Below are positions 1-24,040 of a stretch of 64,000 nucleotides of DNA, piece by piece. The notes under the pieces were generated by a model. It saw only the letters and a list, made by a program, of their open reading frames with translations. It was not told the DNA's origin and did not search any database. Each line of letters begins with the position of its first letter. The first letter of the stretch is position 1. The DNA is taken from the NCBI GenBank assembly GCA_965277805.1, contig OZ255842.1, forward strand, positions 96,001 through 160,000. The letters run 5' to 3'. Source of the stretch: Candidatus Lustribacter sp. (GTDB lineage: Bacteria > Vulcanimicrobiota > Vulcanimicrobiia > Vulcanimicrobiales > Vulcanimicrobiaceae). The position numbers and the translations under genes were made by a program.

Positions 1-590
1 GCCGCCGGCGGTAGGCGCTCCTCATCGACGTCGACTTGCGCCTGCCCGCGTTTGGCGACTAGCGTCGTCGCGCGGGTCCCGGCGATCGAGAAGCGCGCGA
101 TGCCGGCGTCGAACAGATCCAGCGATTCGCGTGCGATTCCCCGCAGCACGAGCTCGGTCGACAGCGAGGCACGAACCCGTTCGATCGCCGTCGAGATTTG
201 GGCTTCGCGCCGCGCGCGCAATTCTTGTGCGGCCGCTTCGCCGGCGCGCTGCGCGTTATCGATGACCGCCGAACTCAAGTAGCCGACGAGCACGATCGAA
301 AGACCCGCGAGCATCCGGTCGCCGATGCCGATCGCGTCCCAATGATGGCCGGCCAGGACGCCGTTCACGTAGCCCGCGATGACGTCGCAAGCCAGTGCCG
401 CGATCACGAGCATCAAACGGAAACGGCTGCTGCCGCCGAGGCTGCTCAGTACGATCGGTACGTCGAGCAGGATCGCTGCGACAAAAAGCTGCGGCGTCAG
501 CAAATCGACGACGAACGCGGCGAGGAGCGCGAGCACGCACACGACCGGCACGAAGCGGTACGGCACGGCTTGCGCTTCCTCAATGCTCAC
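1..590 (-). CDS. Membrane sensor protein, N-terminal part only (about 4 TM segments, then a coiled helix and the start of a GAF-like domain); probable histidine kinase; runs off the left edge
   Basis: Absent from the ORF track. Hand translation from GTG at 590 (GGAGG 6 nt upstream) is open to the edge: VSIEEAQAVPYRFVPVVCVLALLAAFVVDLLTPQLFVAAILLDVPIVLSSL...RVRASLSTELVLRGIARESLDLFDAG. Hydrophobic segments are followed by a typical GAF lead-in helix. No kinase domain is visible in the window. Confidence 0.65.
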   Translation of the reverse strand, partial: MSIEEAQAVPYRFVPVVCVLALLAAFVVDLLTPQLFVAAILLDVPIVLSSLGGSSRFRLMLVIAALACDVIAGYVNGVLAGHHWDAIGIGDRMLAGLSIVLVGYLSSAVIDNAQRAGEAAAQELRARREAQISTAIERVRASLSTELVLRGIARESLDLFDAGIARFSIAGTRATTLVAKRGQAQVDVDEERLPPA

Positions 591-618
591 CGGGACCCTC
601 CGCCGAAGAAGACGCGCT

Positions 619-2703: not shown

Positions 2704-2708
2704 GCATT

Positions 2709-3311
2709 TCACTTTGCAGCGTCCAGCGCGAGATTGAGGCTGAGGACGTTCACGCGAGGTTCGCCGAGGATGCCCAGCGTGCGTCCGAGGACGTGCGCGT
2801 CGACGATCGCTTTGATGGCGTCGGTCGTCATGTGCCGTGCAGCCGCAACGCGCGGGATCTGCCAGACGGCCGCTTCGGGCGAGATGTCCGGATCGATGCC
2901 GCTGCCGCTGCTGGTAACGAGATCGATCGGCGGTTCACCAATCGCTTGCGGGTTCGCTTTCTTGAGCGCCGCGATCGTGGCTTTGGTGGCGTCCATGAGT
3001 TTCTTCGATGTCGGCGCCAGGTTCGTACCGCCCGTGGAGGTCGGATCGTAACCCTTGCCGGCGGCCGACGGCCGGCCCTGGAAGTACTGCGGTTTCGTCC
3101 ACAGCTGGCCGATCAGCAACGAGCCGACGACTTTGCCGTTGCTCTCGACGAACGATCCGTTCGCCTGGTGCGGGAAGATCAACATGCCGATTCCGGTCAT
3201 CGCGAGGGGATAGATGATGCCGAGCGCGATGACGGTCACGATCGTGTAGAGGATCGAGGTGAGGAGATGCGAGAGCGTGTTCTCGCTCGTGGGGGCAGTG
3301 GCGGGTTGCAT
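2709..3311 (-). CDS. kdpC: K+-transporting ATPase subunit C
   Basis: IYPLAMTGIG...QANGS...GSLLIGQ...YFQGRPSA...DLVTSSGSGIDPDISP...GEPRVNVLSLNLALD. Confidence 0.97.
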   Translation of the reverse strand: MQPATAPTSENTLSHLLTSILYTIVTVIALGIIYPLAMTGIGMLIFPHQANGSFVESNGKVVGSLLIGQLWTKPQYFQGRPSAAGKGYDPTSTGGTNLAPTSKKLMDATKATIAALKKANPQAIGEPPIDLVTSSGSGIDPDISPEAAVWQIPRVAAARHMTTDAIKAIVDAHVLGRTLGILGEPRVNVLSLNLALDAAK

Positions 3312-5383
3312 TATGCGGCTCCGGTGAGATGAAGGGCTTGGAGGATGAGATCGATCGCTTTGATCCCGATGAAGGGAACGATGATGCCGCCCAAGCCGTA
3401 GATGAGGACGTTCTCGCGCAGGACGGCGTTCGCGCCACGCGGGCGGTACGCCACGCCGCGCAGGGCGAGCGGAATAAGCGCGATGATGATGAGCGCATTG
3501 AAGATCACCGCCGAGAGGATCGCGCTCTGCGGCGTTGCGAGATGCATGATGTTCAACGCGCTCATCTCGGGATACGTCGCCACGAACATCGCGGGGAGGA
3601 TGGCGAAGTACTTGGCAACGTCGTTCGCGATCGAGAACGTCGTCAGGGCGCCGCGCGTCATCAACAATTGCTTGCCGACTTCGACGACTTCGATCAACTT
3701 CGTGGGATCGGAGTCGAGGTCGACCATGTTGCCCGCCTCTTTCGCAGCTTGCGTGCCGGAATTCATCGCCACGCCGACGTCGGCTTGCGCGAGCGCCGGT
3801 GCGTCGTTGGTGCCGTCGCCGGTCATCGCGACGAGTCGCCCGGACGCTTGCTCGCGCTTGATCAGCGCCATCTTCGTTTCGGGCGTGGCCTCAGCGAGGA
3901 AATCGTCCACCCCCGCTTCGCCCGCGATGGCACTCGCGGTCAGCGGGTTGTCGCCGGTGATCATGATCGTGCGGATGCCCATCGCGCGCAGGCGATCGAA
4001 CCGTACCTTCATGTTCGGTTTGAGAATGTCTTTGAGTGCGATCACCGCGAGCAAACCGTGTTCGTCGGCCAGCAGCAGCGGGGTTCCGCCGGCGCGCGCG
4101 ATGCGCTCGATTTGCGCATCCAGCTGAGGTGCGATTGCGCTGGCGCTTTGCTCGGTGACCCATGCGCGCACCGCATCCGGCGCGCCCTTGCGGATCTTGC
4201 GCCCGTCGGCGAAGTCGAGTCCGCTCATGCGCGTGTAGGCGCTGAACGGTACGAACGACGCACCGGCGGGAAGTTCGGGCCGTGCATCGCCGTAGAGCTG
4301 CGTGTCGGCCGAGAGGCCGGCGTGGGGCGCCGCAAACACGACGATCGAACGGCCTTCCGGCGTTTCGTCGGCCAGTGAGGAGTAGTACGCCGCTTTGTAG
4401 GCCCGCGGAGCGTCCACGCCGTCGGCGATGATGACCTCGCTGGCTTGACGGTTGCCGAGCGTGATCGTACCGGTCTTGTCGAGCAGCAGGGTATCGACGT
4501 CGCCGGCGGCTTCGACCGCGCGGCCGCTCATCGCCAGGACGTTCCGCTGCAGCACACGGTCCATGCCGGCGATGCCGATGGCCGAGAGCAGTCCGCCGAT
4601 GGTGGTCGGGATGAGACAGACGAGCAAGGCGATGAGCACGACGATGCTTGGCTTGGCGCCGGCATAGATGGTGAACGGTGCCAACGTGGCGACCGCGATG
4701 AGGAAGACGATCGTCAAGCCGGCGAGCAAGATCGAGAGCGCGATCTCGTTGGGCGTCTTCTGACGCTGCGCGCCTTCGACGAGCGAGATCATGCGATCGA
4801 GGAACGACTCGCCGGGATTCGCGCCGACGACGAACACGATTTCATCCGAGAGCACGCGGGTGCCGCCGGTGACCGAGCTGCGGTCGCCGCCGGCTTCGCG
4901 AATGACGGGCGCCGATTCGCCGGTGATGGCGGACTCGTCGACCGTGGCCGCGCCTTCGACGATTTCGCCGTCGGCGGGGATCAACTCGCCCGCGATGACG
5001 CGGACGCGATCGCCTTTGCGCAACTCGGTCGCGCTTACCGGCGTGACCGTTCCGTTGACGACGCGCTGAGCGATCGTCTCCGTTTTCGTGCGCCGCAAGA
5101 ACTCGGCTTGCGCTTTACCGCGGCCTTCGGCCACAGCCTCGGCGAAGTTGGCGAACACGACCGTGAACCAGAGCCAGATGGAAATTGCGATGTCGAAGCC
5201 GAGTTTGCCGTTGCCGGCCATGGCATCATGGATCGCGTAGATCAGCGTGACGAGCGCGCCGACTTCGCAGATGAACATAACGGGGTTCTTGAGCTGCACG
5301 CGGGGGTCGAGTTTCTGGAACGAAGCGACAATCGCCGGCCCCAAAATCTCGCCGTCGAACAGCGACCGTGAACGCGATACCAT
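3311..5383 (-). CDS. kdpB: K+-transporting ATPase subunit B (P-type ATPase)
   Basis: DKTGT phosphorylation motif, [22 protein letters not shown]. Start set at ATG 5383, just after the kdpA stop. Confidence 0.98.
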
Positions 5384-5384
5384 G

Positions 5385-7085
5385 TTAGAACGTCTTCCCT
5401 TGATAAAGCTGCAGGTGTTCGACGATCGGTCCCAGCGCATCGGCCGGGAAGAACGTCAGCGCACCGACGATGAGGAGCACGCCGATCAACAGCACGACGA
5501 AGACCGGTGAGGTCGTCGTGAACGTGCCGGCCGTCGTAGCGATGGCCTTCTTGCCGGCCAGCGAGCCGGCGAGTGCAACGATCGCGACGATCTCGGCGAA
5601 GCGGCCGAAGAACATCGAGATGCCGGTCCAGAAGTCGTAGAACGTGTTGCCGCTCAGGCCCCCGAATGCCGAGCCGTTGTTGCCCGTTGCCGACGAGAAC
5701 GCATAGAGGATCTCGGAGAACCCGTGCGCCCCGTTGTTGCTGAGCGTGGCGAGTCCGTCTTTCGCGACCGACGCGATGCCGGTCGGAACGAGCGTGAACA
5801 CCGGAACGACGAGCAGGGCGAGCATCGCGAACTGCACTTCGCGCCGTTCGATCTTCTTGCCAAGATACTCCGGTGTTCGCCCGACCATGAGCCCCGCGAT
5901 GAATACCGTGAGCACGACGAATTCGAGGATGCCGTACAGGCCCGCGCCGACGCCGCCGAAGATGTTCTCGCCGAGCTGGATGTTCAGCATCGGAATCAAG
6001 CCGCCCAGCGGCATGAACGAATCGTGTTGCGCGTTAACGCAGCCGCAGCTCGTGGCGGTCGTGCTGACCGCGAACAGCGCGGACGCACCGACGCCGAAGC
6101 GGACGTCCTTGCCTTCCATGTTGCCGCCGCTGACGCCCATCGCGTGAACGAGCGGGTTGCCCGCGCCTTCCGCGCCCGATGCGATCACCAAACCGCAGGC
6201 CCAAATGAGCGACATCGCGACGAACAGCGCCCACCCTTGCCGCTGATCTTTCGCGTAGCGCCCGTACGTATACGTGAGAGCGGCCGGGATCAACAGGAAC
6301 AGCCACATCTCGAGCATGTTGGTGAACGGGTTGGGGTTCTCGTTCGGTGAGATCGAATTGGCGCCGACGAAGCCGCCCCCGTTGGTGCCGAGTTCCTTGA
6401 TGGCTTCCATCGAAGCCATCGGGCCGCCGGTAATCGACTGCGAGAAGCCCTCGAGACTCTTCACCGGCGCGTACGCCGCGAAGTTTTGCGGCACGCCCTG
6501 GAAGATCAGCACGAGGCCGGCCACGACCGAAATCGGGACGAGGATGTAGAGCATCGAACGCGTGAGGTCGACCCAAAAATTTCCGAGCGACTTCCCGTCG
6601 GTGCGCACGAAACCGCGAACGACCGCAATTGCGATCGCGATACCGGCGCCGGCCGACACGAACATGTGCCATGCCAGTCCGGCCATTTGCGTAAAGTAGC
6701 TCAGCGTCGACTCACCCGAGTAGAACTGCCAGTTGGTGTTCGTCAGGAAGCTGATCGCCGTGTTGAAGGCGAGGTCGGGCGCGACGTTGCCGAACCCCTG
6801 CGGGTTGAACGGCAGCCATGCTTGCGTGCGCAGCAACGTGTACAGATACACGAAGCCGACGAGGCTAAAACCCATCACCGCAAACAGGTAGGATTTCCAG
6901 CCCATCTCGCTTTCGGGATTGATCCGGCAGACTTTGTAGATTGCCGATTCGATCGGAACCATCACCGGCGAGAGGAAGGTGCGTTCGCCCATGAAAACGC
7001 GCGCCATGAAACCGCCAAATGGTTTCACGCACACGAGCACGAGCAGAAAATAGAGCAGGTCTTGAAGCCAGCCGGCTGTCGTCAT
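5385..7085 (-). CDS. kdpA: K+-transporting ATPase subunit A
   Basis: [51 protein letters not shown]. Confidence 0.98.
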
Positions 7086-7175
7086 TTAGAATCGCTCCGG
7101 CCGCAGCATCGCGACAAGCAAATACACGAGTGAGGCGACCGAAAGCAACAGCCCCATCCAAAGTTCGGGCGTCAT
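7086..7175 (-). CDS. kdpF: K+-transporting ATPase subunit F (29 aa)
   Basis: MTPELWMGLLLSVASLVYLLVAMLRPERF: YL..A...PERF signature, abutting kdpA. Confidence 0.92.
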   Translation of the reverse strand: MTPELWMGLLLSVASLVYLLVAMLRPERF

Positions 7176-7261
7176 ATCTTTTCGGCACCCCGTACGTAGA
7201 GGTCGATGAGGGCGAAGAACACGACGATCGCCACGATCAACCCAATTTCGAGTAAAATCAC
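7172..7261 (-). CDS. Small hydrophobic peptide (29 aa) upstream of kdpF
   Basis: Hand translation from GTG 7261: MILLEIGLIVAIVVFFALIDLYVRGAEKI. One TM helix. Its TGA overlaps the kdpF ATG (ATGA), and TATGCT lies 6 nt upstream. Confidence 0.75.
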   Translation of the reverse strand: MILLEIGLIVAIVVFFALIDLYVRGAEKI

Positions 7262-7399
7262 GGGTCAAGCATAGACCCGGCTGGGGCCGGACGTAAGCCT
7301 CCGAACGGATGAGCCGAATGGCTGCGCTGCTTTTCAACCGTTCGGACGACCGCCGAACGGCGGCTTACCAGCGCCGACCGCACCCGCTAGGCTTGAGAC

Positions 7400-7754: not shown

Positions 7755-8705
7755 TTACTTCGGCGGCGACCAGAGGATCTCGCTTGCCGGAAAGCTCTTT
7801 GCGAGGACGCCGTACTTGACCGAGGCATCGATCACCGGCTGAATTTGAGCCGGATCGAGAGAGCTCGAATTCACTGCCCGAGCCATCGAGTGCATCAGCG
7901 CCGGGTCGATCTTCGAGTACTTGATCAGGATGTCGCCGGACTCGCTCTGGTGCGCGTTCGCCCACACGCTCGCTTTGACGACCGCCGCGGTAAAGCGCTT
8001 CGCGACGTCGACGTGCGTTTGCAGCCACGACGACATCGCGCCCCAGGCCACGGTGACGAAACTCGGCGCGATGGCCTCCTCCGGATCGGCGATGATGCGG
8101 CCCGAGGCTTTCGCCGCGGTGAGGAACGGCTCGGTCGTGATCACCGCATCGACGGTATGCGCGGCGAGCGCGGCGCCCATTTGCGGAAACGGCAATTCGA
8201 CGAACTTCAGCGTTTTGGAATCCCCGCCGTGCTTATCGACCCAGCTCATCGCGAGCACTTGCTGGATCGACTTGACGGCGAGAATGCCGATCGTCTTGCC
8301 GTTGAGGTCCGCGGCCGCCTTCACCGTTGAATCTTTCGGCACCATGACGGCGGTCGCTTCGACCTTCGACGAGGTACTGACTGACGGTGCGAACAGCTTG
8401 AAGTCGAAGCCGTTCAGGTGCCCCTGCGCGGTCGCCGTGACGACCGATTGCGCGACGTCGATCGCGCCGGACGTCAACGCCGCGGCCGAGGCCGAACCGT
8501 TGGGCAATGGCGTGATCTGCACGTCGAGGCCGGCATCCTTGAAATAGCCCAAATCGAGAGCGAAGAAGACGTTGCCGCTGTTGTCGGTCGGCAGCGCGCC
8601 GACTTTGACCACAGTTAGCGGCGTCTGCGCCATTGCGGCCAGTGGTGCAACGGCGAGGACGAACGCGGCGAATATCGGCCCAAGCGGACGGTAAGCGTTT
8701 TTCAA
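7755..8705 (-). CDS. ABC transporter substrate-binding protein, NMT1/SsuA/TauA-like
   Basis: TTG at 8705 with AAGGAG upstream, overlapping the stop of the previous gene. Signal peptide (..FAAFVLAVAPLAAMA). GYFKDAGLDVQI, DLNGKTIG, VDAVITTEPF. Confidence 0.88.
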   Translation of the reverse strand: MKNAYRPLGPIFAAFVLAVAPLAAMAQTPLTVVKVGALPTDNSGNVFFALDLGYFKDAGLDVQITPLPNGSASAAALTSGAIDVAQSVVTATAQGHLNGFDFKLFAPSVSTSSKVEATAVMVPKDSTVKAAADLNGKTIGILAVKSIQQVLAMSWVDKHGGDSKTLKFVELPFPQMGAALAAHTVDAVITTEPFLTAAKASGRIIADPEEAIAPSFVTVAWGAMSSWLQTHVDVAKRFTAAVVKASVWANAHQSESGDILIKYSKIDPALMHSMARAVNSSSLDPAQIQPVIDASVKYGVLAKSFPASEILWSPPK

Positions 8706-9880
8706 GTAACGGCACTCCTTCGGTAGACGACGCCGGTGAAACCAGGAATGAAGACGCCGGCCGGGTCGTTTCCGGCGGCGACGAGCTGATCGATGATATA
8801 GTGCGCGGCCGCGTTGGAGACGAGTTGCGCCGGGTCTTCCATCACGACGCGCAGGCGCGTGATCAGCCCGCGCCGATCGTGCAGTGACGCCAAGGCGGGC
8901 ATTGCGTCGACGCGCTCGGTCGTAGCGTCGATCACCGGTGCCGCGGGCACGGTCGCGCGGTAGCCGGGATATCCGGCGAACATTTCGCGCGCCAGGTCCG
9001 TGCTCGCGCGCGTGCGGTTCCACATCTCGCGGTACTCTGCATTGAGCTTCGCGGCGTGGGCGGTATCGGTGACGTCATCGGCGACGAAGGAAGGCGCGAA
9101 GGGTGCGATCAGCACGCGCTCTGCGGCCAGCCGCTCGCTCGAAGCGCGCCACAGAATATGGCACATGTTGTTGGTGGCCCAGGTGACGCCCGCGGTCGCG
9201 CGTCCCGTGCGTCCGGCCAGCAGCACCATCGCGCGCTCCCACGCGACGTCGTGCCCGCGCAGCCAGGCGATGATGCGCTGCACGATGTCGATGAAGGCGA
9301 GACCGAACGTTCCCGCCATCATGTCGTTCATCGCCACCGGTACGTCCGGCGAATCGAGCGGATCTAAAAAGCGCTCGCGTACCGCGCTGAAGTCGAGTAG
9401 CGATTCGTTGTCGAGGGCGGCGCGCAAGTAATCGCGCGTGACGATGCACGTATAATCGGTCAGCTCCGCGATTTCGCTCTCGAGGTTGCGCCAGGCGTTT
9501 ACCTCGAGCGCGCGCCAGTAGGCGGCATCGTTGATCGCGAGCACCGCGTCCACATGCTCCAGGAGGCGAGCCGCGTCGTCGCGCCAGCCCGGATCACCGA
9601 GTTCACGTAGGCGCGCGAGCCAGGGAACGGCCGTACCGAGATGCGAGACCGCGGTGATCTCAATGAAGCCGCGCGTGGCGTGCCGGAAACTCTCGATCTG
9701 CGGCGGCCGTCCGTCGCCGGGAAAGTACGCAACGTCGTTTCCGGTGGCGACGAGCAGCGGATCGCCGGCGCTGGCGAGCGTCATCCGCCGTCCGAGATGC
9801 GCGCCGATGCTCTCCGGGTCCGAGGTGTAGGCCGCGAACAGCCCGCGAAACGCCGGATGCGGCGCGTACGGCTGCTTCAC
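8702..9880 (-). CDS. Uncharacterised protein (about 392 aa), tentatively DUF5624-like
   Basis: GTG start overlaps the upstream TGA. Motifs DPLLVATGND, TRGFIEITAVSHLG, GRATAGVTWATN, RLRVVMEDPAQLVSN. The family name is from recall only. Confidence 0.7.
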   Translation of the reverse strand: MKQPYAPHPAFRGLFAAYTSDPESIGAHLGRRMTLASAGDPLLVATGNDVAYFPGDGRPPQIESFRHATRGFIEITAVSHLGTAVPWLARLRELGDPGWRDDAARLLEHVDAVLAINDAAYWRALEVNAWRNLESEIAELTDYTCIVTRDYLRAALDNESLLDFSAVRERFLDPLDSPDVPVAMNDMMAGTFGLAFIDIVQRIIAWLRGHDVAWERAMVLLAGRTGRATAGVTWATNNMCHILWRASSERLAAERVLIAPFAPSFVADDVTDTAHAAKLNAEYREMWNRTRASTDLAREMFAGYPGYRATVPAAPVIDATTERVDAMPALASLHDRRGLITRLRVVMEDPAQLVSNAAAHYIIDQLVAAGNDPAGVFIPGFTGVVYRRSAVT

Positions 9881-10971
9881 AGCGTGCACCGGTAGACGAT
9901 CGTGTCGGCGCGGTAGCGCACCTCGGGGCTCAGGCTGTTGGAAACGGCGAGAAAGTGCTCGCCATCCGCTTCGAAGTACGCTGCATCCGTGCCGCCGGTG
10001 GTTGCGAATTCCTCGACCACGTCGAAGGTGCCGTTTTCCCAACCGTAAATTTGCGACCGCAATTGCGGTTTCGGATCGTGCGGCGTGCCTTGAATGAAAC
10101 ACACGCGCACGAGAAAGCGTCCGCGCGGCGTCTCGATGATTTTCAGCTCGCGTCCGCCGTCACCGCCCAACGATTGCTGCACGGCGAAGCGCTCGCCGTC
10201 CCAGCGTTGCAGCGTCGTCTCGCCGAAGATCGGCGCGTAGATGAGCCATGAGCTTCCGTTGTCCGCAAAATACGCGAATGCCCGGCCCGCTTTTTCGCCG
10301 ATGTCCTGGAACGGAACGAAGTACTTGCCGTCCCAGCGCAAGATGCGCGACGCCCCGACGTGATCGGCATACGCGAGCAGCTGCATCCCATCCAGCTCGA
10401 AGAACGTCCAGTTATACCCCCAGCGGCCGTCGAGCACTTGGAACTCGGCAAATTGCGTGCCGTCCCACTCGTAGATGCGCGACGTCGCCGGCTGACGTGC
10501 CTCAACGCCCTCCATCGTTACGCCTTGCGCGAGTGCCAAGAAGCGCCGGCCGTCGAATTCGAAAAAACGCCACTGCTTCGCGCCGAAGGTGGGGATCGTT
10601 TGAAACAACACCGGACCGTTCTCACTCCAGCGATAGATCGCCGATGTGCAGTTGAGGTCGTACGGGCCGCGGCCGCTGCGCAGGCTGGCCAGTGCGAGAA
10701 ACGCGTCGTCGCCGATCGTGAAAAATTCGGCGTCTTCGCCGCCGGGCACGGGTAACGCGCCGTCGTCTTCGAACTTGCCGGTGCGCCAAACGTACAGCCG
10801 CGTGTCGACGTCGCTGTTGCCGCCGTTCATGTGCGCCGGCGTGCCGGGGACGTCTTCCGCCAGTTGCGGGATGACCAAACGGAGCGCCCCGCCGGTACGA
10901 AAGACCTCGACGGCCCGGGCGCCGGACGTGGCGAGCCGCTGATGCACGGTGAGCACGCTTTGATCAGGCAT
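9877..10971 (-). CDS. EPTP/EAR-repeat beta-propeller protein (7 repeats)
   Basis: Seven repeats of about 44-59 aa with the pattern FQ.(I/L)...G....FF...G..FLA......S.IY.W.G..F, e.g. LFQTIPTFGAKQWRFFEFDGRRFLALAQ...SRIYEWDGTQF. Confidence 0.8.
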   Translation of the reverse strand: MPDQSVLTVHQRLATSGARAVEVFRTGGALRLVIPQLAEDVPGTPAHMNGGNSDVDTRLYVWRTGKFEDDGALPVPGGEDAEFFTIGDDAFLALASLRSGRGPYDLNCTSAIYRWSENGPVLFQTIPTFGAKQWRFFEFDGRRFLALAQGVTMEGVEARQPATSRIYEWDGTQFAEFQVLDGRWGYNWTFFELDGMQLLAYADHVGASRILRWDGKYFVPFQDIGEKAGRAFAYFADNGSSWLIYAPIFGETTLQRWDGERFAVQQSLGGDGGRELKIIETPRGRFLVRVCFIQGTPHDPKPQLRSQIYGWENGTFDVVEEFATTGGTDAAYFEADGEHFLAVSNSLSPEVRYRADTIVYRCTL

Positions 10972-11048
10972 GGTACGCTCTCACCGTATCACCGCCGGTC
11001 GCGGAGCAGGTATCCCACATCCGTCCAAAAAATGTCGCGGCTCGGCCA

Positions 11049-11810
11049 ATGATGACGGAAATGCTTGCCATCACCGAGTCGGACGGATTCGAAACGCGTC
11101 GCTTTCGCTACGAAGGCAACCACGTGATGGAGCCGCACGTGCATGAGCACGGGCAACTCACTTGGATCACGGCCGGCGTGCTCACGCAGGTGACCGAGTC
11201 CGGGATGTGGGTCGCGCCGCGCCAACGCCTGATTTGGATGCCGCCCGGCGTGCACCACGGCGCGCAGTCGCGCGGCGTCGTCGAAGGGTGGCTCGTCCTC
11301 GCGCCGGCGTATTTTGCCGAGCATCTGCCGGCGCGCGTGTGCGTGCTGCGCACCTCGCAATTGTTGACCACGGCGCTCGAGCGCTTGACCGAACGCGCTG
11401 CGACGTCGCACCTGGCCGCGTTGCTCGCGCCCGTAATTCTGTTCGAGCTCGGTCAAACGGCGGTCGAAGAGCTGGGCGTGCCGTTGCCCCAGGGCACGAC
11501 GTTGCGTGCGGTTGCGCAAATGGTCATCGAGACACCGTCCGACCCGCGTGGCATCGACGACTGGGCGCGCGCGGCACTGATGTCCACGCGCTCGTTCACG
11601 CGCCACTTCGAAGCGGAAACCGGCATGCCGTTCTCGGAGTGGAAACGGCGCGTGGTGGCACGTCGTGCGGTCGAATTGCTCGCCTCGGGCGAGAGCGTGG
11701 CAAACGTGGCCGCCATGCTCGGCTACGAGTCGGTGAGCGCGTTTATCGCAATGTTCAAACGGCTGCACGGCATGCCGCCGTCGCGTTTCGTCGCCTCAAC
11801 GCTCAACTAA
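11049..11810 (+). CDS. AraC-family transcriptional regulator with cupin sensor domain
   Basis: PHVHEHGQL cupin; C-terminal MSTRSFTRHFEAETGMPFSEW...VAAMLGYESVSAFIAMFKRLHGMPP. Confidence 0.95.
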   Translation: MMTEMLAITESDGFETRRFRYEGNHVMEPHVHEHGQLTWITAGVLTQVTESGMWVAPRQRLIWMPPGVHHGAQSRGVVEGWLVLAPAYFAEHLPARVCVLRTSQLLTTALERLTERAATSHLAALLAPVILFELGQTAVEELGVPLPQGTTLRAVAQMVIETPSDPRGIDDWARAALMSTRSFTRHFEAETGMPFSEWKRRVVARRAVELLASGESVANVAAMLGYESVSAFIAMFKRLHGMPPSRFVASTLN

Positions 11811-11888: not shown

Positions 11889-12674
11889 ATGGGAACGGAC
11901 GACCGCCGCCTTCTCGACCGCCTGGCCGCCGGCGAACCAGCGCTGACCGTCGGCATCCGCGCGGCGCGCACCGCCGATGTCGCGCGGATCGCGCACGCCG
12001 CCGGGTATGCCGCGCTCTGGGTTGATCTCGAACACAGCAGTATGCCGATCGACGTTGCGTCGGCGATCGCCTCGACCGCGCACGATCTCGGCATGGAAGC
12101 GTGGGTACGCGTGTGCGAGCGCGACTACGGCGTGATCGGTCGCCTGCTCGACGGCGGTGTGACGGGCATCGTCATGCCGCGCGTCGAGAGTGCTGAAGAA
12201 GCACGGAAGCTCGTCACCGCCGTCCGTTTTCCGCCGCTCGGCCAACGCTCGCAAATCGGTATGCTGCCGCATTTCGGCTCGGCCCGTCCGTCGCCGGCCG
12301 ATTTCATGCAGCGCATCGAACGCGCAACGAGCGCGCATTGCCTGATCGAGTCCGCCGCCGGCGTTGCGAATGCCGATGCGATTGCGGCCGTGGACGGCGT
12401 CGACGTCTTGCACCTTGGCTTGAACGACCTCTCCGTCGATCTCGGTCACATCGGCGAGTTGCGTCATCCCGCCGTCGCGGATGCCTGCGCGACCGTGATC
12501 GCTGCGGCCAAGCGGCACGGCAAATTAGCCGCCGTGGGCGGAGTGGCCGACCCCGATCACTACCGCGACATCCTCGCGCTCGGCGCGATTCCGCTGATCT
12601 TCGCGGCGATCGATTCTGACGTGCTGGCCGCCGGGCTGCGCTCGCGCGCTTCCGAGTGGCTGGCGCACGCGTGA
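11889..12674 (+). CDS. HpcH/HpaI-family aldolase
   Basis: WVDLEHS, LLDGGVTGIVMPRVES, RFPPLGQRS, LIESAAGVANADAIAAVDGVDVLHLGLNDLS. Confidence 0.92.
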   Translation: MGTDDRRLLDRLAAGEPALTVGIRAARTADVARIAHAAGYAALWVDLEHSSMPIDVASAIASTAHDLGMEAWVRVCERDYGVIGRLLDGGVTGIVMPRVESAEEARKLVTAVRFPPLGQRSQIGMLPHFGSARPSPADFMQRIERATSAHCLIESAAGVANADAIAAVDGVDVLHLGLNDLSVDLGHIGELRHPAVADACATVIAAAKRHGKLAAVGGVADPDHYRDILALGAIPLIFAAIDSDVLAAGLRSRASEWLAHA

Positions 12675-13552
12675 GCGACATCCTGCCGATCGTTCCGATG
12701 CGGGCGGCCAACACGAACGCGGCGCCCCGCTTCGCCGTGCCGCCGGGTGCCTGCGACGTCCACGTCCACGTCTTCGAACCCGGCTATCCGCACGTGCCGC
12801 ATCCGCACTACGAATTTCCGGATGCATCGCTGCGGCAGCTGCGCGCGATGACGGACTTCCTCGGCATCGATCGCGTGGTGGTCGTGCAGCCGAGCTTCTA
12901 CGGCACCGACAACCGCGTGCTGCTCGGCGCCCTGCAACAGCTTGGGGATGCGGCCCGCGGCGTCGTGATGGTAGAGGAGGACGTGTCCGACGCGCAGCTC
13001 GACACCTTTCATGCGCACGGGGTGCGCGCGATCCGGCTCGATCTCTTCGCACGCGCGGATTGGCCGCGTGCCGATCTGCGGGCGTACATCACGCGGATGT
13101 TCGAACGCGTGGGCCGGCGCGGCTGGCATCTGCAGTTTTACACTCCGGGCTACGTCCTACGCGATTTGCTGCCGTTTTTGGCGACCATCGAGAGCGATTT
13201 CGTGATCGATCACATGGGCTACATGCTCGAATCGGACGGTCTCGGTCCGGCCGATTTCGCCCGATTGCTCGAGGTGATGAAACGCGGTCATGCCTGGCTC
13301 AAACTCTCGGGACCGTATCGCCTTGCCAAGGGCAAAGGCTACGGTGCGGTTGCGCACCTCGCACGCGGGATCGTCGAGGCGTGCCCGGATCGCGCGCTAT
13401 GGGGCAGCGATTGGCCGCACTTGCCCGACGGCAGCCGCGATACCGGCGAGTTGCTCAACCTGGTGCTCGAGTGGATTCAGGATCCGGCGACACGCAAACA
13501 CGTGCTGGCCGATAACCCGGCGCGGCTCTTCGGGTTCAGTGCGCGCGGATGA
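12671..13552 (+). CDS. Amidohydrolase-2 family lactonase (LigI / PDC-lactonase-like)
   Basis: GACDVHVHVF, VVVQPSFYGTDN, VIDHMG, WLKLSGPYR, WGSDWPH; GTG start overlaps the aldolase stop. Confidence 0.88.
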   Translation: MSDILPIVPMRAANTNAAPRFAVPPGACDVHVHVFEPGYPHVPHPHYEFPDASLRQLRAMTDFLGIDRVVVVQPSFYGTDNRVLLGALQQLGDAARGVVMVEEDVSDAQLDTFHAHGVRAIRLDLFARADWPRADLRAYITRMFERVGRRGWHLQFYTPGYVLRDLLPFLATIESDFVIDHMGYMLESDGLGPADFARLLEVMKRGHAWLKLSGPYRLAKGKGYGAVAHLARGIVEACPDRALWGSDWPHLPDGSRDTGELLNLVLEWIQDPATRKHVLADNPARLFGFSARG

Positions 13553-13758: not shown

Positions 13759-14772
13759 ATGGATCGTCGAACATTTGTGGGTGCTCTAGCCGGGGCCGCC
13801 ACCGTTGCCGGCACTGCCGGTGCGGGCATGGCGCCGCTGAATCCGCCGGTGAAATTGCGCGTCGGGATCATCGGCGCGCTGTTCGATTCCGGATCACTGG
13901 CCGCATCGAGTAAAGGCTACTTCCAGGACGAAGGCCTCGATGTCGAGATCGTGAGTTTTCCAAGTTCGGCCGAGGCGAGTCAGGCCGTCGGCATCGGTCA
14001 GATCGACGTGTTTTCCGGTGCCCCGAACGCCGGCTTGTTCAACGCGCGATCGCAAGGAATCGACATCCGCGTGGTTGCCGGCGCCGGCGAGAATTCGCCC
14101 GGGCACGGCATCATCAGCCTCGTTCTGCGAAAAGACCTGCTCGATTCCGGGCGCTACAAAACGGCCGCCGATCTCAAGGGCATGAAACTCGCTACCGGCA
14201 TCGCTCAGCCGAGTCAGTGGCTCGGCGCGGCGATGGCCGCCAACGCGGGATTAGGCCCGAAGGACGTAGACTTCGTCAGCCTCGGGTTTGCCAACACCAT
14301 CGCCGCGATGTCCAACAAGGCCGTCGACGGCGGGTCCGTCAACGAGCCGTTTGCGACGCTGCTGATCGAGCAGGCCGGTGGCGTGCGCGTCGCCTCGATG
14401 GACAAATTCAAGCCGCGCTTTCCCGCCGGGTATCTGCTCTACGGCACGTCGCTGACGAAGATAAACCGCGAAGCGGGGCGTCGCTACCTGGTCGCCTATC
14501 TCCGCGGGCTGCGCGACTACAAGCTGGCCTTCGGACCGGAGAAGAAGAGCACGGCCGACGTCGTCGCGCTGCTGAAAAAGTACAACGTGGTCGTCACGCC
14601 GGAAACACCGTCGATGGGCGTTCCCGATGACGGCGCGCCGTCGTTCGCCGGCGTTTCGGATTTCGCGGGTTGGCTGCAGCTGACGGGGACGATTCAGAAG
14701 CCGCCGGATCTCAAGGGACTCGTGGATGATTCATTCCGGCAATACGCGCTGCCGCAATTGCGGCTCTTGTAG
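13759..14772 (+). CDS. ABC transporter substrate-binding protein, NMT1/SsuA-like, with probable Tat signal
   Basis: MDRRTFVGALAGAA twin-arginine leader; KGYFQDEGLDVEIV, DLKGMKLA, VDGGSVNEPF. Confidence 0.88.
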   Translation: MDRRTFVGALAGAATVAGTAGAGMAPLNPPVKLRVGIIGALFDSGSLAASSKGYFQDEGLDVEIVSFPSSAEASQAVGIGQIDVFSGAPNAGLFNARSQGIDIRVVAGAGENSPGHGIISLVLRKDLLDSGRYKTAADLKGMKLATGIAQPSQWLGAAMAANAGLGPKDVDFVSLGFANTIAAMSNKAVDGGSVNEPFATLLIEQAGGVRVASMDKFKPRFPAGYLLYGTSLTKINREAGRRYLVAYLRGLRDYKLAFGPEKKSTADVVALLKKYNVVVTPETPSMGVPDDGAPSFAGVSDFAGWLQLTGTIQKPPDLKGLVDDSFRQYALPQLRLL

Positions 14773-14774
14773 GC

Positions 14775-15557
14775 GTGCCGCAAGCACGCGTCAACGGGCG
14801 CTCGTTGTGGTTCGAGGACACCGGGGGTGACGGTCCGCCGGTGGTCTTCTCGCACGGGTTCCTCATGGATCGCGAGATGTTCGCGGACAACATCGCGGCG
14901 CTTGCGCCGGACTACCGCTGCGTGTCGTGGGACCAGCGGGGATTCGGCCGCACAGGACCCGTCGCTGCGCCGTTTACGTACTGGGATAGCGCGCGCGACC
15001 TCTTGGGACTTCTCGATTATCTCGGCATCGAACGCGCTGGGCTCGTCGGTATGTCGCAGGGCGGGTTCATCTCGATGCGAGCGGCATTGCTGGCGCCGCA
15101 ACGCGTAAGTGCGCTCGTGCTGATCGATACGCGATCGGGCATCGATGCGCCGGAAGTCATCGAGGCGTTTGCGGGGCTCGATGCCGAGTGGCGCAAGAAC
15201 GGCGCGCAAAACGTCAAGAACGATCTGGCCGGCCTGCTCGGTGTGGCCTTTGCTGCGGAGCGCTGGTTTCCAAAGTGGGACGCGCTCGGCAGCGAAGACC
15301 TGCACCATCCGATCGGTGCGCTCAAGGATCGCGACGATATCACCGGCCGCTTAACCGAGATCGTCGCGCCCTGCCTCGTGATTCACGGCGACGCCGATCG
15401 AGCAATCGCGCTCGAACATGGCCTTGCGCTCCACGACGGCTTACCGACCTGCGAGGATATTGTTCTGGTGCCGGGCGCCGGACACGCCTCGAACATGGAG
15501 TCGCCGGAGGTCGTCAACGCGCCGTTGCGCGGGTTTCTCGACCGTCACTTGTCGTAA
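14775..15557 (+). CDS. Alpha/beta hydrolase (enol-lactone hydrolase-like)
   Basis: HGFLMD, WDQRGFG, GMSQGG nucleophile elbow, IHGDAD, GAGH. Confidence 0.9.
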   Translation: MPQARVNGRSLWFEDTGGDGPPVVFSHGFLMDREMFADNIAALAPDYRCVSWDQRGFGRTGPVAAPFTYWDSARDLLGLLDYLGIERAGLVGMSQGGFISMRAALLAPQRVSALVLIDTRSGIDAPEVIEAFAGLDAEWRKNGAQNVKNDLAGLLGVAFAAERWFPKWDALGSEDLHHPIGALKDRDDITGRLTEIVAPCLVIHGDADRAIALEHGLALHDGLPTCEDIVLVPGAGHASNMESPEVVNAPLRGFLDRHLS

Positions 15558-15560
15558 CGT

Positions 15561-16661
15561 TTAGAGTCGCGAGCCGCTACTCACCCCGAAGGCGCCGATC
15601 GGCCGGCCCGACGGCGCGCGCAGCGTGACGACGCTCCGCCGCATCGATCGGATGCCGCCGTCGTGGGTGGTGAGTTCGACCGTTTCGGTCCACCGCCCGT
15701 GCGTGAGCGCAAGGTGGGTCAGTTGCAGCGGCACGGCCGTCTCGTGGTTGTCGGCGTGGAGAATCGCCGGCGTCTTGCCGACAACGTCTTCTTTGCGCAA
15801 GCCGAACGAATGCTCGGCGACGGGGCTGAAGCCGACGATACGCGTGTCCAGATCCGTCACGATCACGCAGTCCGGGAATTGCTCGAGCGCGCCGGCGTAC
15901 GATTTGAGCAGCTCGGATTCGTCGCCCGAATCGTTACCATGACTCGCGAGCGCTTCACGATACAGTTGCTCGGTCTCGACACTGGGTGCAATGTCCAATT
16001 GCTCGTGCAGCAGCGCGGAAAATTCGCGATATTCCCGGATGGCCGCGGCGGAGCGCCCGTCGCGCAGCAAGAGGCGCATCAGCTTCCGGCGGCCGGTTTC
16101 GTCGAACGGATCGAGCACGAAGGTTCGGCGCAGCGTAGCGATCGCGCTGACCACGTCGCCCGCATCGGACTGAGCATCGGCAACTTTGAGCAGCACGGCG
16201 ATCGTTTCGTCACTGCTGACGCGGCGCTGGTGGGCAAGCCATTCATCAAACGGCGTCCCGCCAAGATCGAGTCCGGCCAGTAACTCACCGCGGCAGAGCT
16301 CGCCCGCGCCTTGCCAGTCCGAGGGGTTGGTGCTCGCTCCGAGTTGCCGCAGCCGGTCGACATCGGTTTGGAACTGCGTGCGGTCTAAACCGACGCGGTC
16401 GCCTTCGAGCGTCAACGCGTCGGCATCGACGCCGAGCGCGCGCCGGATGGTGGACAGACATTGCCGCAGGCTGTGGCGCGCTTCATCTTCGGAGACTTCG
16501 GGCCACAGCAGTCCCGCGAGGTGGCCGCGCGAGAACTCGTTGCGCGAGGAAAGCGCCAGGTAGGCGAGCAGGGCGCGTTGCCGCACGCCGCTGACGGCAT
16601 AGCGTTGACGATTACCGCTCGCGATGGTGAACTCGCCGAAAGCGGTCACTTGTAGGGCCAT
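15561..16661 (-). CDS. SARP-family activator (wHTH plus BTAD) with C-terminal PAS domain
   Basis: RALLAYLAL..SRGHLAGLLWPE...ARHSLRQCL; ELLAGL...FDEWL; DPFDE...LMRLL...A...Y..F...L...LDIAPSVET; then DCVIVTDLDTRIVGFSPVAEHSFG...DVVGK (PAS). Confidence 0.88.
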   Translation of the reverse strand: MALQVTAFGEFTIASGNRQRYAVSGVRQRALLAYLALSSRNEFSRGHLAGLLWPEVSEDEARHSLRQCLSTIRRALGVDADALTLEGDRVGLDRTQFQTDVDRLRQLGASTNPSDWQGAGELCRGELLAGLDLGGTPFDEWLAHQRRVSSDETIAVLLKVADAQSDAGDVVSAIATLRRTFVLDPFDETGRRKLMRLLLRDGRSAAAIREYREFSALLHEQLDIAPSVETEQLYREALASHGNDSGDESELLKSYAGALEQFPDCVIVTDLDTRIVGFSPVAEHSFGLRKEDVVGKTPAILHADNHETAVPLQLTHLALTHGRWTETVELTTHDGGIRSMRRSVVTLRAPSGRPIGAFGVSSGSRL

Positions 16662-16689: not shown

Positions 16690-16722
16690 TTGACGGTCGC
16701 TTGACGGGCACGCTGCTAAACT
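16690..16722 (+). promoter_or_regulatory. Direct-repeat operator TTGACGG-TCGC-TTGACGG plus putative extended -10 (TGC-TAAACT)
   Basis: Lies in the 69-bp gap between the SARP gene and the CoA ligase; identical 18-mer to 13721-13738. Confidence 0.75.
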
Positions 16723-16730
16723 CCGCGAAG

Positions 16731-18224
16731 ATGTTTCATCTCTCGAGCGTCCTCAACCGGGCAACCCAGTTGTATGGAGATCGTCTCGCCGTTTCCGACG
16801 AGCATTCGGCTCTTACCTACCGGCAACTCGGGGAACGCGTCGGAGCTCTCGTCGTTGGACTCGTCGATCGCGTCGCCGCCGGCGATCGGGTACTGCTCGT
16901 CGATCGCAATAGTGCCCGCGCGCTCGAACTGAATTTCGCCTGCGCGGCACTGGGAGCGATTCTCGTTCCGTTGAACACGCGGCTCGCCGCACGCGAAATT
17001 GCGGCCATTGCGGCCAAAACGGAGCCCGCGCTGTGTATGGCGAGCGACGCGTTCGCACAGCTCTTGCCGCCGAATGTCGAGGCGATTGTTTGGCCGGAAA
17101 CCGACACCGCGTTGGCGCAAAATCGCTATGAAGCTCTTCTCCGAACGGCCGGCCCCCTGGCCGTGAGCCGCCGCTCGCCGAACGACATCGCGCAAATCTT
17201 CTATACGAGCGGTACGACCGGCCAGCCGAAGGGCGTGTGTTTGACGCATGCCAACCTGGCCGCAAGCGCCTACGATGCCATCGTCGCGCTCGCGCTCGAT
17301 CGCGATGACGTCTGGCTGCATGCCGCGCCGATGTTTCATCTCGTCGATGCGTTCGCGATCTGGGGCATGACGATGGTCGGCGGCGTTCATGCGATCGCAC
17401 ATTTCCGGCCGGAAGATTTCGCCGATGTCGTCGCCCGGCATCGCGTAACCAAGACGAGCTTGCCGCCGACCCTGATCGCAATGGCGATCGCGCACATCGC
17501 GCCCAACGACGCCCGCGTGGCATCGCTCAAACGAGTGAGCTACGGCGGCTCGCCGATGACCGAGACCGTTCACGTTGCGGCGACCACCGTGCTCGGCGTC
17601 GATTTACTGCAAGCTTACGGGATCACCGAGTCATCGGGAATCGTGGCGCATCAACTTCCCGGCGACCGCATCAATCCGGCGTCCGTCGGTCAACCGGTGA
17701 CGAGCGTACGGATGCGCCTCACCGATGGAGACGGCAGAATTATCGAGGGCGACGGCGTCGGCGAGATCCAGGTTGCGGGCCCGCGCGTGATGGCCGGCTA
17801 CTGGCGCCGTCCGGCAGCAACGGATGCGGTGCTCGTGGATGGCTGGTATTCTACCGGCGATCTCGGGAGCCGCGATGCGGACGGTCACTTCTCCATCGTC
17901 GGACGGAAGAAAGACATGGTCATTACCGGCGGCGAGAACGTGTATCCGATCGAGGTTGAAAACGTGCTTGCCGCGCACCCCGCGGTGGGCGAAGTGGCCG
18001 TGTTCGGCGTGCCGAGCGAACGCTGGGGTGAGGAAGTGCGCGCGGCCGTCGTGTTGCGCGACGGACAGGTTGCGAGCGAACGCGATCTCATCGATTTCTG
18101 CCGCGAACGCATCGGCGGCTACAAAGTGCCGAAGTCGATTCATTTCTCCACCGATCCACTGCCGACGACCGGACCCGGCAAAGTTGCAAAACATCTGCTG
18201 CGCCAGGAGTACGCAACGAAATGA
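16731..18224 (+). CDS. Acyl/aryl-CoA ligase (AMP-binding superfamily)
   Basis: YTSGTTGQPKG, YGITE, WYSTGDLG, GRKKDMVITGGENVYP, GKV. Start moved to ATG 16731 because the TTG at 16701 is inside the operator. Confidence 0.93.
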   Translation: MFHLSSVLNRATQLYGDRLAVSDEHSALTYRQLGERVGALVVGLVDRVAAGDRVLLVDRNSARALELNFACAALGAILVPLNTRLAAREIAAIAAKTEPALCMASDAFAQLLPPNVEAIVWPETDTALAQNRYEALLRTAGPLAVSRRSPNDIAQIFYTSGTTGQPKGVCLTHANLAASAYDAIVALALDRDDVWLHAAPMFHLVDAFAIWGMTMVGGVHAIAHFRPEDFADVVARHRVTKTSLPPTLIAMAIAHIAPNDARVASLKRVSYGGSPMTETVHVAATTVLGVDLLQAYGITESSGIVAHQLPGDRINPASVGQPVTSVRMRLTDGDGRIIEGDGVGEIQVAGPRVMAGYWRRPAATDAVLVDGWYSTGDLGSRDADGHFSIVGRKKDMVITGGENVYPIEVENVLAAHPAVGEVAVFGVPSERWGEEVRAAVVLRDGQVASERDLIDFCRERIGGYKVPKSIHFSTDPLPTTGPGKVAKHLLRQEYATK

Positions 18225-24029: not shown

Positions 24030-24040
24030 GGAGACCCGTC

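Follow-up and report, generated by a model that had tools for sequence, protein, structure and literature searches.

The window analysed here is a stretch of 64,000 nucleotides from Candidatus Lustribacter sp. (positions 96,001 to 160,000 of contig OZ255842.1). Two adjacent, translationally coupled genes in this window code for a beta-propeller of the EPTP/EAR family (gene 1) and a DUF5624 protein (gene 2). We found that this pair very probably forms one catabolic module with two further conserved proteins encoded nearby, an HpcH/HpaI-family class II pyruvate aldolase and a cog3618 lactonase of the Amidohydro_2 family. This finding is carried by the association of the four genes across phyla, by natural fusions of the EPTP and DUF5624 domains and by the intact catalytic residues of the lactonase and the aldolase. 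As the best overall explanation, we tentatively propose a four-enzyme catabolic module in which the EPTP-DUF5624 pair provides an isomerase/hydratase step. To our knowledge, EPTP is known only as a protein-binding domain of animal proteins, with no function assigned to the family, and DUF5624 only as an unannotated crystal structure. We found no publication on the gene pair or the cluster in open-access full text.

In order to collect the neighbourhoods of the pair, one genome per species was scanned with 10 closer DUF5624 sequences (the cytoplasmic set, see below). This yielded 138 relatives, of which the best 80 loci were kept, and the presence of the other genes was counted by tblastn with the window proteins. 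The 80 loci span Eremiobacterota (the closest, at 69% identity), Alpha-, Beta- and Gammaproteobacteria, Actinomycetota, Acidobacteriota and one 'Melainabacteria' metagenome-assembled genome (MAG). An EPTP gene is present in 72 of them, and in 67 it lies directly upstream of the DUF5624 gene on the same strand, with a median gap of 39 nt. Three of the eight loci lacking EPTP are cut at a contig end; among the other five, four have an EPTP gene with 48-54% identity elsewhere in the genome, and one has none.

The two domains also occur in single polypeptides. From 1.8 billion cluster representatives, 283 relatives of DUF5624 were retrieved, and all 11 long ones that were scanned hold both EPTP and DUF5624. 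These 11 include EPTP-DUF5624 proteins of 769 and 790 residues, a DUF5624-EPTP protein in the reverse order (823 residues, with a signal-like leader) and two EPTP-DUF5624-Abhydrolase_1 triple fusions of 1090 and 1082 residues; the remaining six two-domain proteins are partial or shorter (505-579 residues). Two more EPTP-DUF5624 fusions, of 820 and 828 residues, were seen in addition to the 11. In one fusion (P0248), a linker of only ~8 residues separates the two parts. The co-occurrence of genes 1 and 2 across phyla, which the initial annotation of this DNA had put forward as a check, was thus found both as adjacency and as fusion. In the window, the GTG start codon of gene 2 overlaps the stop codon of gene 1 within a GTGA tetranucleotide (9877-9880). 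Because of the fusions in both orders, the adjacency across phyla and this overlap, we regard the two proteins as one functional unit, and the sequence evidence suggests that they probably form a physical complex.

Orthologues of the window aldolase were found in 54 of the 80 loci (44-80% identity) and those of the lactonase in 57 (53-77% identity). In 53 of the 54 loci holding both, the two genes are neighbours, and in 21 they directly flank the EPTP-DUF5624 genes. In Actinomycetota, the operon reads LysR< >EPTP>DUF5624>binding protein>permease>ATPase>ATPase>aldolase>amidohydrolase. Other orders are MFS>EPTP>DUF5624>aldolase>amidohydrolase (MFS, major facilitator superfamily transporter) and aldolase>amidohydrolase>TctC>EPTP>DUF5624. 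Both the aldolase and the lactonase are missing from 23 loci. When five of the corresponding genomes were checked, four turned out to have an amidohydrolase with 56-58% identity, which in three cases lies 0.6-1.4 kb beyond the fetched 7-kb flank, as judged by contig coordinates, and in one case belongs to a second copy of the module. In a phyletic test on 151 genomes of one family, drawn evenly around one genome, the same two genomes carry DUF5624, EPTP and the lactonase orthologue (E value ≤1e-60), and the other 149 carry none of them. The initial annotation had delimited a three-gene unit that captures and processes a small molecule. These boundaries missed the aldolase and lactonase genes to the right of the araC gene, and what emerges instead is a two-operon, four-enzyme module; we revised its context because the chemistry of the module can be read only from the aldolase and the lactonase.

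Regulators and transporters differ between lineages. LysR-type regulators were found in 42 gene-called loci, and the commonest transporter, present in 26, is an MFS protein nearest to the aromatic-acid/H+ symporter family (TIGR00895, 248 bits, below the cut-off). TonB-dependent receptors are encoded in 23 gene-called loci, Peripla_BP_6 ATP-binding cassette (ABC) systems in 19 and BD-FAE esterases in 9; Opp-type ABC systems, TctC, TetR and MarR proteins were found in fewer loci each. Oxidoreductase genes of any one kind recur in at most four gene-called loci. The gene caller used for these counts was crude, relying on GC3 bias, and in some cases called antisense open reading frames (ORFs) instead of the aldolase and amidohydrolase genes, so that the tblastn counts are more trustworthy. 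In the window and in several other loci, the module has genes for homogentisate or protocatechuate breakdown beside it.

Gene 1 matches Pfam PF03736 with an E value of 7.6e-45 (151.2 bits for a cut-off of 21, six repeats scored) and gene 2 matches PF18538 with an E value of 4.7e-35 (120.9 bits for a cut-off of 25), as the initial annotation had guessed; neither has an NCBIfam family match. The same annotation had described gene 1 as a seven-repeat propeller, and its AlphaFold2 (AF2) model (predicted local distance difference test score, pLDDT, 93.2; predicted template modelling score, pTM, 0.91) has 28-30 strands forming seven four-stranded blades. The nearest solved structure is the EPTP domain of LGI1, with a VIA-align Z score of 36.3 and a root-mean-square deviation of 2.1-2.5 Å over 309-313 residues, the next entry having a Z score of 29.7. 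Foldseek gave E values of 5e-17 for LGI1 versus 4.5e-8 for the next family. Gene 1 thus has the repeat family and the seven-bladed fold in common with the EPTP/EAR domains of animal LGI1-4, TSPEAR and ADGRV1 (PF03736; LGI1 structures 5y2z, 5y31 and 9kzc). However, the animal domain is secreted, joined to leucine-rich repeats or other modules, and binds ADAM22, whereas gene 1 codes for a stand-alone protein that lacks an N-terminal signal-like segment, and is therefore taken as cytoplasmic, in an operon of catabolic enzymes. These features do not fit an extracellular protein-binding role as in the animal members. Gene 1 is 14-17% identical to LGI1 and has invariant charged residues of its own, in addition to its DUF5624 partner.

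In an alignment of 27 EPTP sequences including fused and secreted-type forms, R19, D40, R98, Y104, K132, S164, Y186, R230, R274, S306 and T324 are invariant, and E79, D80, Q133, R142, E168, D203, H204, E275 and T328 are at least 90% conserved. Going by the strand order of the model, R19, E79/D80, K132, Y186, R230, R274 and T328 each open strand A of a blade. The model suggests that the conserved residues ring one mouth of the central channel, where they would form a basic, acid-base-rich pocket fit for a polycarboxylate. A four-His iron site of the kind present in carotenoid-oxygenase propellers was considered and dropped, as H204 and, weakly, H10 are the only conserved His residues. Among the structural matches of gene 1 is a seven-bladed propeller enzyme, aldos-2-ulose dehydratase (4a7k), with a Z score of 27.9. 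It is tied with generic propellers such as WD40 proteins, and its likeness to gene 1 is that of the generic fold, no sequence relation being seen. The 3-carboxymuconate lactonising enzyme of Neurospora is also a seven-bladed propeller; together, the two enzymes illustrate that a propeller of this kind can act on small acids and sugars as a dehydratase, an isomerase or a lactonising enzyme.

For gene 2, the AF2 model (pLDDT 91.6) has a sole whole-fold match, 4jx2, with a Z score of 33.6 versus 10.2 for the next match; phmmer also retrieved 4jx2, with an E value of 6.7e-27 over residues 31-382. This structure is that of lpg1979 from Legionella pneumophila, a 'putative secreted protein' with no assigned function and the only solved relative of gene 2, with which it has 21-22% identity and the SH.G motif in common. 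The other Foldseek and VIA-align matches correspond to a generic four-helix bundle (residues 69-203), with Z scores of at most 10.2 that fall in the tool's non-specific range, and the ESM Atlas gave no usable match. The initial annotation recognised no fold in gene 2, and our searches of Pfam, NCBIfam and the PDB and with Foldseek/VIA-align gave no informative match beyond DUF5624 and 4jx2, and no characterised enzyme to explain the protein.

The DUF5624 family splits into two clades, one leaderless, including gene 2, and one with hydrophobic N-terminal leaders like that of 4jx2. In a 27-sequence alignment, leaders are present in P0299, P0303, P0305 and others and absent from gene 2 and its clade. 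Thus, lpg1979 belongs to a signal-peptide clade whose members are mostly solitary, whereas gene 2 is part of the cytoplasmic, EPTP-coupled clade. Across 27 diverse members, G71, S79, H80, G82, W99, N117, W122, M188, T191, F192, W214, G226 and P260 are nearly invariant. Three motifs had been singled out initially as conserved-looking, namely SHLG, GRATAG and EDPAQL.SN. The expectation holds across the family for S79, H80 and G82 of the first and for G226 of the second, all conserved in at least 90% of the 27 members. The conservation of the remainder is narrower: R227, T229 and G231 of GRATAG and E348, D349 and Q352 of EDPAQL.SN are invariant only in the 10-sequence cytoplasmic set. The hypothesis of a di-iron or other metal site in the helical bundle was abandoned, since the conservation of E74, D198 and H201 is confined to the cytoplasmic clade, and gene 2 itself has a Gln at position 201.

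The lactonase matches PF04909 with an E value of 4.2e-42 and LigI, a 2-pyrone-4,6-dicarboxylate (PDC) hydrolase (4d8l), with an E value of 1.7e-37 (132 bits). Its six PDB matches at E values ≤1e-5 are LigI and two mutant forms of it, one 'putative PDC hydrolase' and two unnamed amidohydrolases. H36, H38, H186 and D252 align with H31, H33, H180 and D248 of LigI, and Y52, R127, R133 and Y162 with Y49, R124, R130 and Y156, residues that we take to serve in lactone activation, water activation and carboxylate binding. None of the eight varies among the orthologues linked to the module, of which 49-50 of 50 align at a given position. The protein thus has the H-x-H motif, the third His and the presumed catalytic Asp of cog3618 Amidohydro_2 enzymes. 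The best NCBIfam match is 4-sulfomuconolactone hydrolase (NF042924), at 160.4 bits for a cut-off of 500. As the lactonase scores only 132 bits to LigI, the substrate of the module need not be 2-pyrone-4,6-dicarboxylate. The aldolase matches PF03328 with an E value of 5.7e-30 (104.7 bits for a cut-off of 25), and its H49, R74, E154 and D180, presumably the metal and pyruvate site by comparison with HpaI, are invariant in 43 orthologues. It scores below the cut-offs of the specific families HpaI (109.6 versus 368.8), GarL (106.9 versus 406.75) and YfaU (80.4 versus 441).

A LigI-like lactonase with aligned active-site residues and a metal-dependent pyruvate aldolase are common to the module and to the protocatechuate 4,5-cleavage/gallate pathway (LigI/LigU/LigJ/LigK, with GalD, GalB and GalC in Pseudomonas). 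In the module, two proteins without an assigned role come in between. No LigU, LigJ or LigK was found in the gene cluster of the window, a search of the whole genome gave no match to the PrpF-family isomerases, and the aldolase is of the HpcH type versus RraA-like in the Lig/Gal pathway. A parallel is found in riboflavin catabolism, where the passages of the report drawn on here describe a pyrone hydrolase, a dienedioate hydratase and a retro-aldolase (LumW/LumY/LumX) that convert a carboxypyrone to pyruvate and a second acid (PMC12746152). In the same passages, the hydrolase depends on cobalt and the LumY hydratase is a cupin of 16 kDa; according to the authors, neither the lactonase nor the hydratase of their pathway could be recognised by sequence (PMC12746152). 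As far as these passages go, the three-step logic of the Lum pathway is similar to that proposed for the module, the two being likened by their steps.

These elements can be assembled into a horizontally spread, mobile catabolic module made of four conserved enzymes, encoded in two divergent operons with an AraC regulator in the window. The leftward operon would comprise EPTP, DUF5624 and a solute-binding protein, and the rightward operon araC, the aldolase, the lactonase, a second binding protein and an alpha/beta hydrolase. The compound taken up would be acidic, a lactone or similar to a pyrone, and probably of aromatic origin, and the cog3618 lactonase would open its ring. The product would be converted to a 4-hydroxy-2-oxo acid, which the aldolase would then split to pyruvate and a second small acid. 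The ring-opened enoate of an unsaturated carboxylated lactone requires isomerisation and hydration to a 4-hydroxy-2-oxo acid before a class II aldolase can act, and known pathways achieve this with proteins that are not related, such as LigU and LigJ or GalD and GalB. In riboflavin catabolism, it is LumY that performs this step, according to the part of the report used here (PMC12746152). We tentatively assign the EPTP-DUF5624 pair to this gap because its members are the only conserved module proteins left to fill it. Most likely, they would work as one heteromeric enzyme without a nucleotide cofactor: some EPTP-paired forms carry signal-like leaders (P0300 and eight loci of the secreted clade), and dependence on ATP or NAD(P)H is therefore unlikely. 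That the pair is catalytic at all appears quite likely from the sequence evidence. Its simplest placement, as an isomerase/hydratase (hydro-lyase) between the lactonase and the aldolase, draws on analogy with known pathways and is more tentative. As for the substrate, we favour a carboxylated lactone or pyrone of aromatic origin over a sugar lactone.

Several observations weigh against this explanation. Neither EPTP nor DUF5624 shows a catalytic motif or a cofactor site that we could recognise. The fold of DUF5624 matches only the uncharacterised 4jx2, and that of the propeller best matches a protein-binding domain, with enzyme propellers not standing out. The order of the genes is silent as to the side of the lactonase step on which the pair acts, and the assignments of the transporters and the lactonase are putative, resting on family matches below threshold. 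Loci L043, L044 and L048, of Mycobacterium type, and L067 combine EPTP-DUF5624 with an alpha/beta hydrolase or an esterase and have no aldolase or lactonase; in L067, the alpha/beta hydrolase gene comes right after that of DUF5624, and the genome has no lactonase orthologue. Finally, the secreted DUF5624 clade, for which 80 metagenome loci were collected (L102-L181), departs from the cytoplasmic arrangement. An EPTP gene is found directly downstream in eight of these loci, the reverse of the cytoplasmic order. The other 72 lack EPTP, including 31 with at least 600 nt on both sides. The eight EPTP-bearing loci represent a more divergent sub-clade, with 40-47% identity to P0299, and otherwise no neighbour recurs in more than seven of the 80. 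The mostly solitary secreted clade led us to reject the idea that DUF5624 always requires EPTP, and indicates that DUF5624 can work without the propeller.

Within the same module, the pair might instead act before the lactonase, making the lactone from an imported acid, for instance as a cycloisomerase similar to the lactonising propeller of Neurospora, or preparing the substrate in another manner, so that the ring-opened product would be a direct substrate of the aldolase. We consider this somewhat unlikely. In the variant loci and the triple fusions, the pair is joined to an alpha/beta hydrolase instead of the cog3618 lactonase, enol-lactonases being among the enzymes with this fold, and BD-FAE esterases are encoded nearby in the loci counted above; the hydrolase link connects the pair with a lactone or ester step and gives no clue to the side of it on which the pair acts. 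Propeller lyases do exist, yet 4a7k is tied with generic propellers among the matches of gene 1, and we saw no sequence or specific structural similarity between gene 1 and the lactonising propellers. In addition, a product of the LigI or sulfomuconolactone type would still need water before a class II aldolase could act, in keeping with the logic of established pathways (PMC12746152), and this step would be left unfilled. A sugar-acid route appears quite unlikely. In that case, the lactonase would open a sugar or aldaric lactone, the pair would be a new sugar-acid dehydratase and the aldolase would split a 2-keto-3-deoxy acid, in a non-phosphorylative pathway similar to that of L-rhamnose or the Dahms pathway. 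The cog3618 group includes sugar lactonases, and the HpcH family includes 2-keto-3-deoxy sugar-acid aldolases, with YfaU and GarL among the matches of the module aldolase. Moreover, a gene for malate synthase G adjoins the module in four of the 80 loci, in three lineages (L022, L026, L058 and L073), which would suit glyoxylate or glycolaldehyde as the second aldolase product, although we regard these neighbours as a weak hint. However, none of the six PDB matches of the lactonase is named a sugar lactonase, and its best NCBIfam match is the sulfomuconolactone enzyme. The MFS partner scores 248 bits with the aromatic-acid family versus 103 with the galactonate family, no sugar dehydrogenase recurs among the gene-called loci, and the genes beside the module in the window and several loci are those of homogentisate or protocatechuate breakdown.

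The pair could also be something other than an enzyme, namely a ligand-binding, sensing or scaffolding pair that accompanies a lactonase-aldolase pathway. The likeness of the propeller to LGI1 and the lack of a catalytic motif speak for this reading, as does the resemblance of the DUF5624 four-helix core to sensor ligand-binding domains (Z scores of 7.9 for PcaY_PP, 8.6 for NarQ and 7.2 for McpS), but these low values are in the non-specific range of the tool. Some 20 polar residues are invariant or nearly so across phyla and in fused and secreted forms, the pair is fused to a hydrolase domain, and its genes appear to be co-transcribed and translationally coupled with those of enzymes and importers, all of which makes a non-enzymatic role very unlikely. 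Least credible of all, and highly improbable, is an autonomous three-gene unit under AraC control, in which the binding protein encoded by gene 3 would capture a ligand for a propeller/enzyme pair. The 4-bp overlaps that had been reported at 9877-9880 and 8702-8705 are indeed seen in the DNA, as GTGA and TTGA, and couple the three genes in the window. The araC gene does diverge from them across 77 bp that include a conserved block. Nevertheless, a binding protein of the gene 3 type is found in none of the 80 loci, including the closest, and is thus no part of a conserved unit. The ORFs scanned, from the start of the window to 29.5 kb, include no NMT1-type or BPD_transp_1 permease and no ATPase for it, and an exported binding protein cannot pass its ligand to two cytoplasmic proteins without a transporter. 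We therefore retain the four-enzyme module, with the pair tentatively placed between the lactonase and the aldolase, as the best explanation. The features of the locus are listed in Table 1.

Table 1. Features of the EPTP-DUF5624 locus, in window coordinates
Feature	Position	Strand	Basis or location
Gene 3: NMT1/SsuA-type solute-binding protein, 316 aa, TTG start	7755-8705	-	Pfam NMT1
Gene 2: DUF5624 protein, 392 aa, GTG start	8702-9880	-	ORF list, Pfam PF18538
Gene 1: EPTP/EAR propeller, 364 aa	9877-10971	-	ORF list, Pfam PF03736
Divergent control region, 77 bp	10972-11048		Between gene 1 and araC
AraC-family regulator with cupin-type sensor domain, 253 aa; heads the rightward operon	11049-11810	+	HTH_18, AraC_binding
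HpcH/HpaI-family class II pyruvate aldolase, conserved module member	11889-12674	+	PF03328
cog3618 Amidohydro_2 lactonase, LigI-like, conserved module member	12656-13552	+	PF04909
Second NMT1-type binding protein, twin-arginine-like leader, local add-on	13759-14772	+	Pfam NMT1
Alpha/beta hydrolase, PcaD-like, possible accessory member	14775-15557	+	Abhydrolase_1

Genes 1 and 2 are real genes and not chance ORFs, given the strength of their homologue matches (E values down to 1e-218 and 1e-232, respectively). The GTG start of gene 2 is supported by its homologues, which begin at the same position in the alignments. At 8702-8705, the TTG start of gene 3 overlaps the stop codon of gene 2, with an AAGGAG sequence ~8 nt upstream. 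The leftward operon ends with gene 3, since the kdpFABC genes lie downstream. These belong to a kdp potassium-pump locus at 379-7337, with kdpD at 379-2703 on the forward strand and kdpC, B, A and F at 2709-7337 on the reverse strand.

Gene 3 matches Pfam NMT1 with an E value of 7.6e-26 and carries, as judged by eye, an N-terminal hydrophobic signal-like segment, in agreement with its initial description as an exported binding protein. With 93 bits for a cut-off of 163.5 in TIGR01728, and no permease or ATPase gene alongside, it does not qualify as part of a NitT/TauT-type ABC importer; it is a lineage-specific add-on. The second binding protein (NMT1 E value of 6.1e-19) is 26% identical to gene 3 and is likewise found in none of the 80 loci. 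The two genes occupy different operons, that of gene 3 at the end of the leftward one and the other in the rightward one, before the alpha/beta hydrolase gene, which starts 3 nt after it. The alpha/beta hydrolase (Abhydrolase_1 E value of 1.1e-27; 108 bits with the PcaD model, below its cut-off), compared as a possible counterpart, is only 26% identical both to the hydrolase domain of the P0251 fusion and to the hydrolase encoded downstream of DUF5624 in L044, and it is a possible accessory member of the module.

The AraC protein has the two expected domains, HTH_18 (E value of 1.4e-22, 80.2 bits) and AraC_binding (E value of 1.2e-6, 28.7 bits for a cut-off of 21.1). The initial annotation had noted it as the divergent regulator of a ligand-inducible module, and a ligand-responsive regulator does lie there. 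AraC regulators are in fact a minority, present in 10 of the 80 loci, two of these being cut at the locus edge, against the LysR-type regulators of the 42 loci mentioned above. In the two closest loci, L007 and L008, the AraC gene is divergent from EPTP, and it adjoins EPTP in L023, on the same strand, and in L033. The control region contains a block (TTGGCC..CGCGAyATTTTTTG.A..GGATA.C.GC) that is kept in L007 (~5814-5909) and L008 (~5748-5893) and is therefore common to the window, a Candidatus Eremiobacterota MAG and the alphaproteobacterium Inquilinus. We take this block as a candidate for the operator or the promoter of the module; no match to the sigma-70 consensus was found in the 77 bp. 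For annotation, the lesson is that the core lies in the aldolase and lactonase, to which the binding protein and AraC are exchangeable additions.

To the right of the module, a BTAD-PAS regulator gene on the reverse strand (15561-16661) precedes an aromatic-catabolic island on the forward strand (16701-29553). The island codes for an AMP-dependent ligase, a UbiD-type decarboxylase, an enoyl-CoA hydratase, an alpha/beta hydrolase, homogentisate 1,2-dioxygenase, fumarylacetoacetase and a Peripla_BP_6/Liv-type ABC importer. The LigB-type ring-cleavage repertoire of the genome is unusually rich, with 19 matches to the LigB extradiol dioxygenase family in 5.5 Mb, in addition to four RraA-like matches. 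In gammaproteobacterial and Steroidobacteraceae-type MAGs (L009, L011-L013, L032-L034, L036 and L053), a 354-residue YVTN-type beta-propeller without Pfam match at E values ≤1e-4 adjoins a TonB-dependent receptor beside the module.

Altogether, the EPTP and DUF5624 families gain a testable biochemical context, that of a compact lactonase-aldolase pathway. Carriers of the module include culturable soil bacteria of the genera Paraburkholderia, Inquilinus, Shinella, Sphingosinicella, Amycolatopsis, Nonomuraea and Streptomyces. Among the carriers in the locus scan are Paraburkholderia sediminicola, Shinella lacus, Sphingosinicella xenopeptidilytica, Amycolatopsis saalfeldensis DSM 44993 and Nonomuraea endophytica DSM 45385. 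If the pair is the missing hydro-lyase/isomerase, it would represent a new enzyme fold for aromatic or lactone catabolism, and the reaction would identify a compound that these bacteria scavenge via TonB receptors and several types of importers. This would be of relevance for the turnover of lignin and plant metabolites and for the engineering of pathways with pyrone-type intermediates. More speculatively, and with appreciable doubt, EPTP and DUF5624 may constitute a previously unrecognised two-part enzyme class, in which a polycarboxylate would be bound by a central ring of Arg, Lys, Tyr and acidic residues in the propeller, next to a helical partner of unique fold. Such enzymes, free of nucleotide cofactors and operating in the cytoplasm and the periplasm, would act as hydro-lyases or isomerases on ring-opened lactones. 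Catalysis on small molecules, and not adhesion, would then be an old role of the EPTP/EAR fold, for which LGI1, the human epilepsy protein, and its relatives are so far the only known examples.

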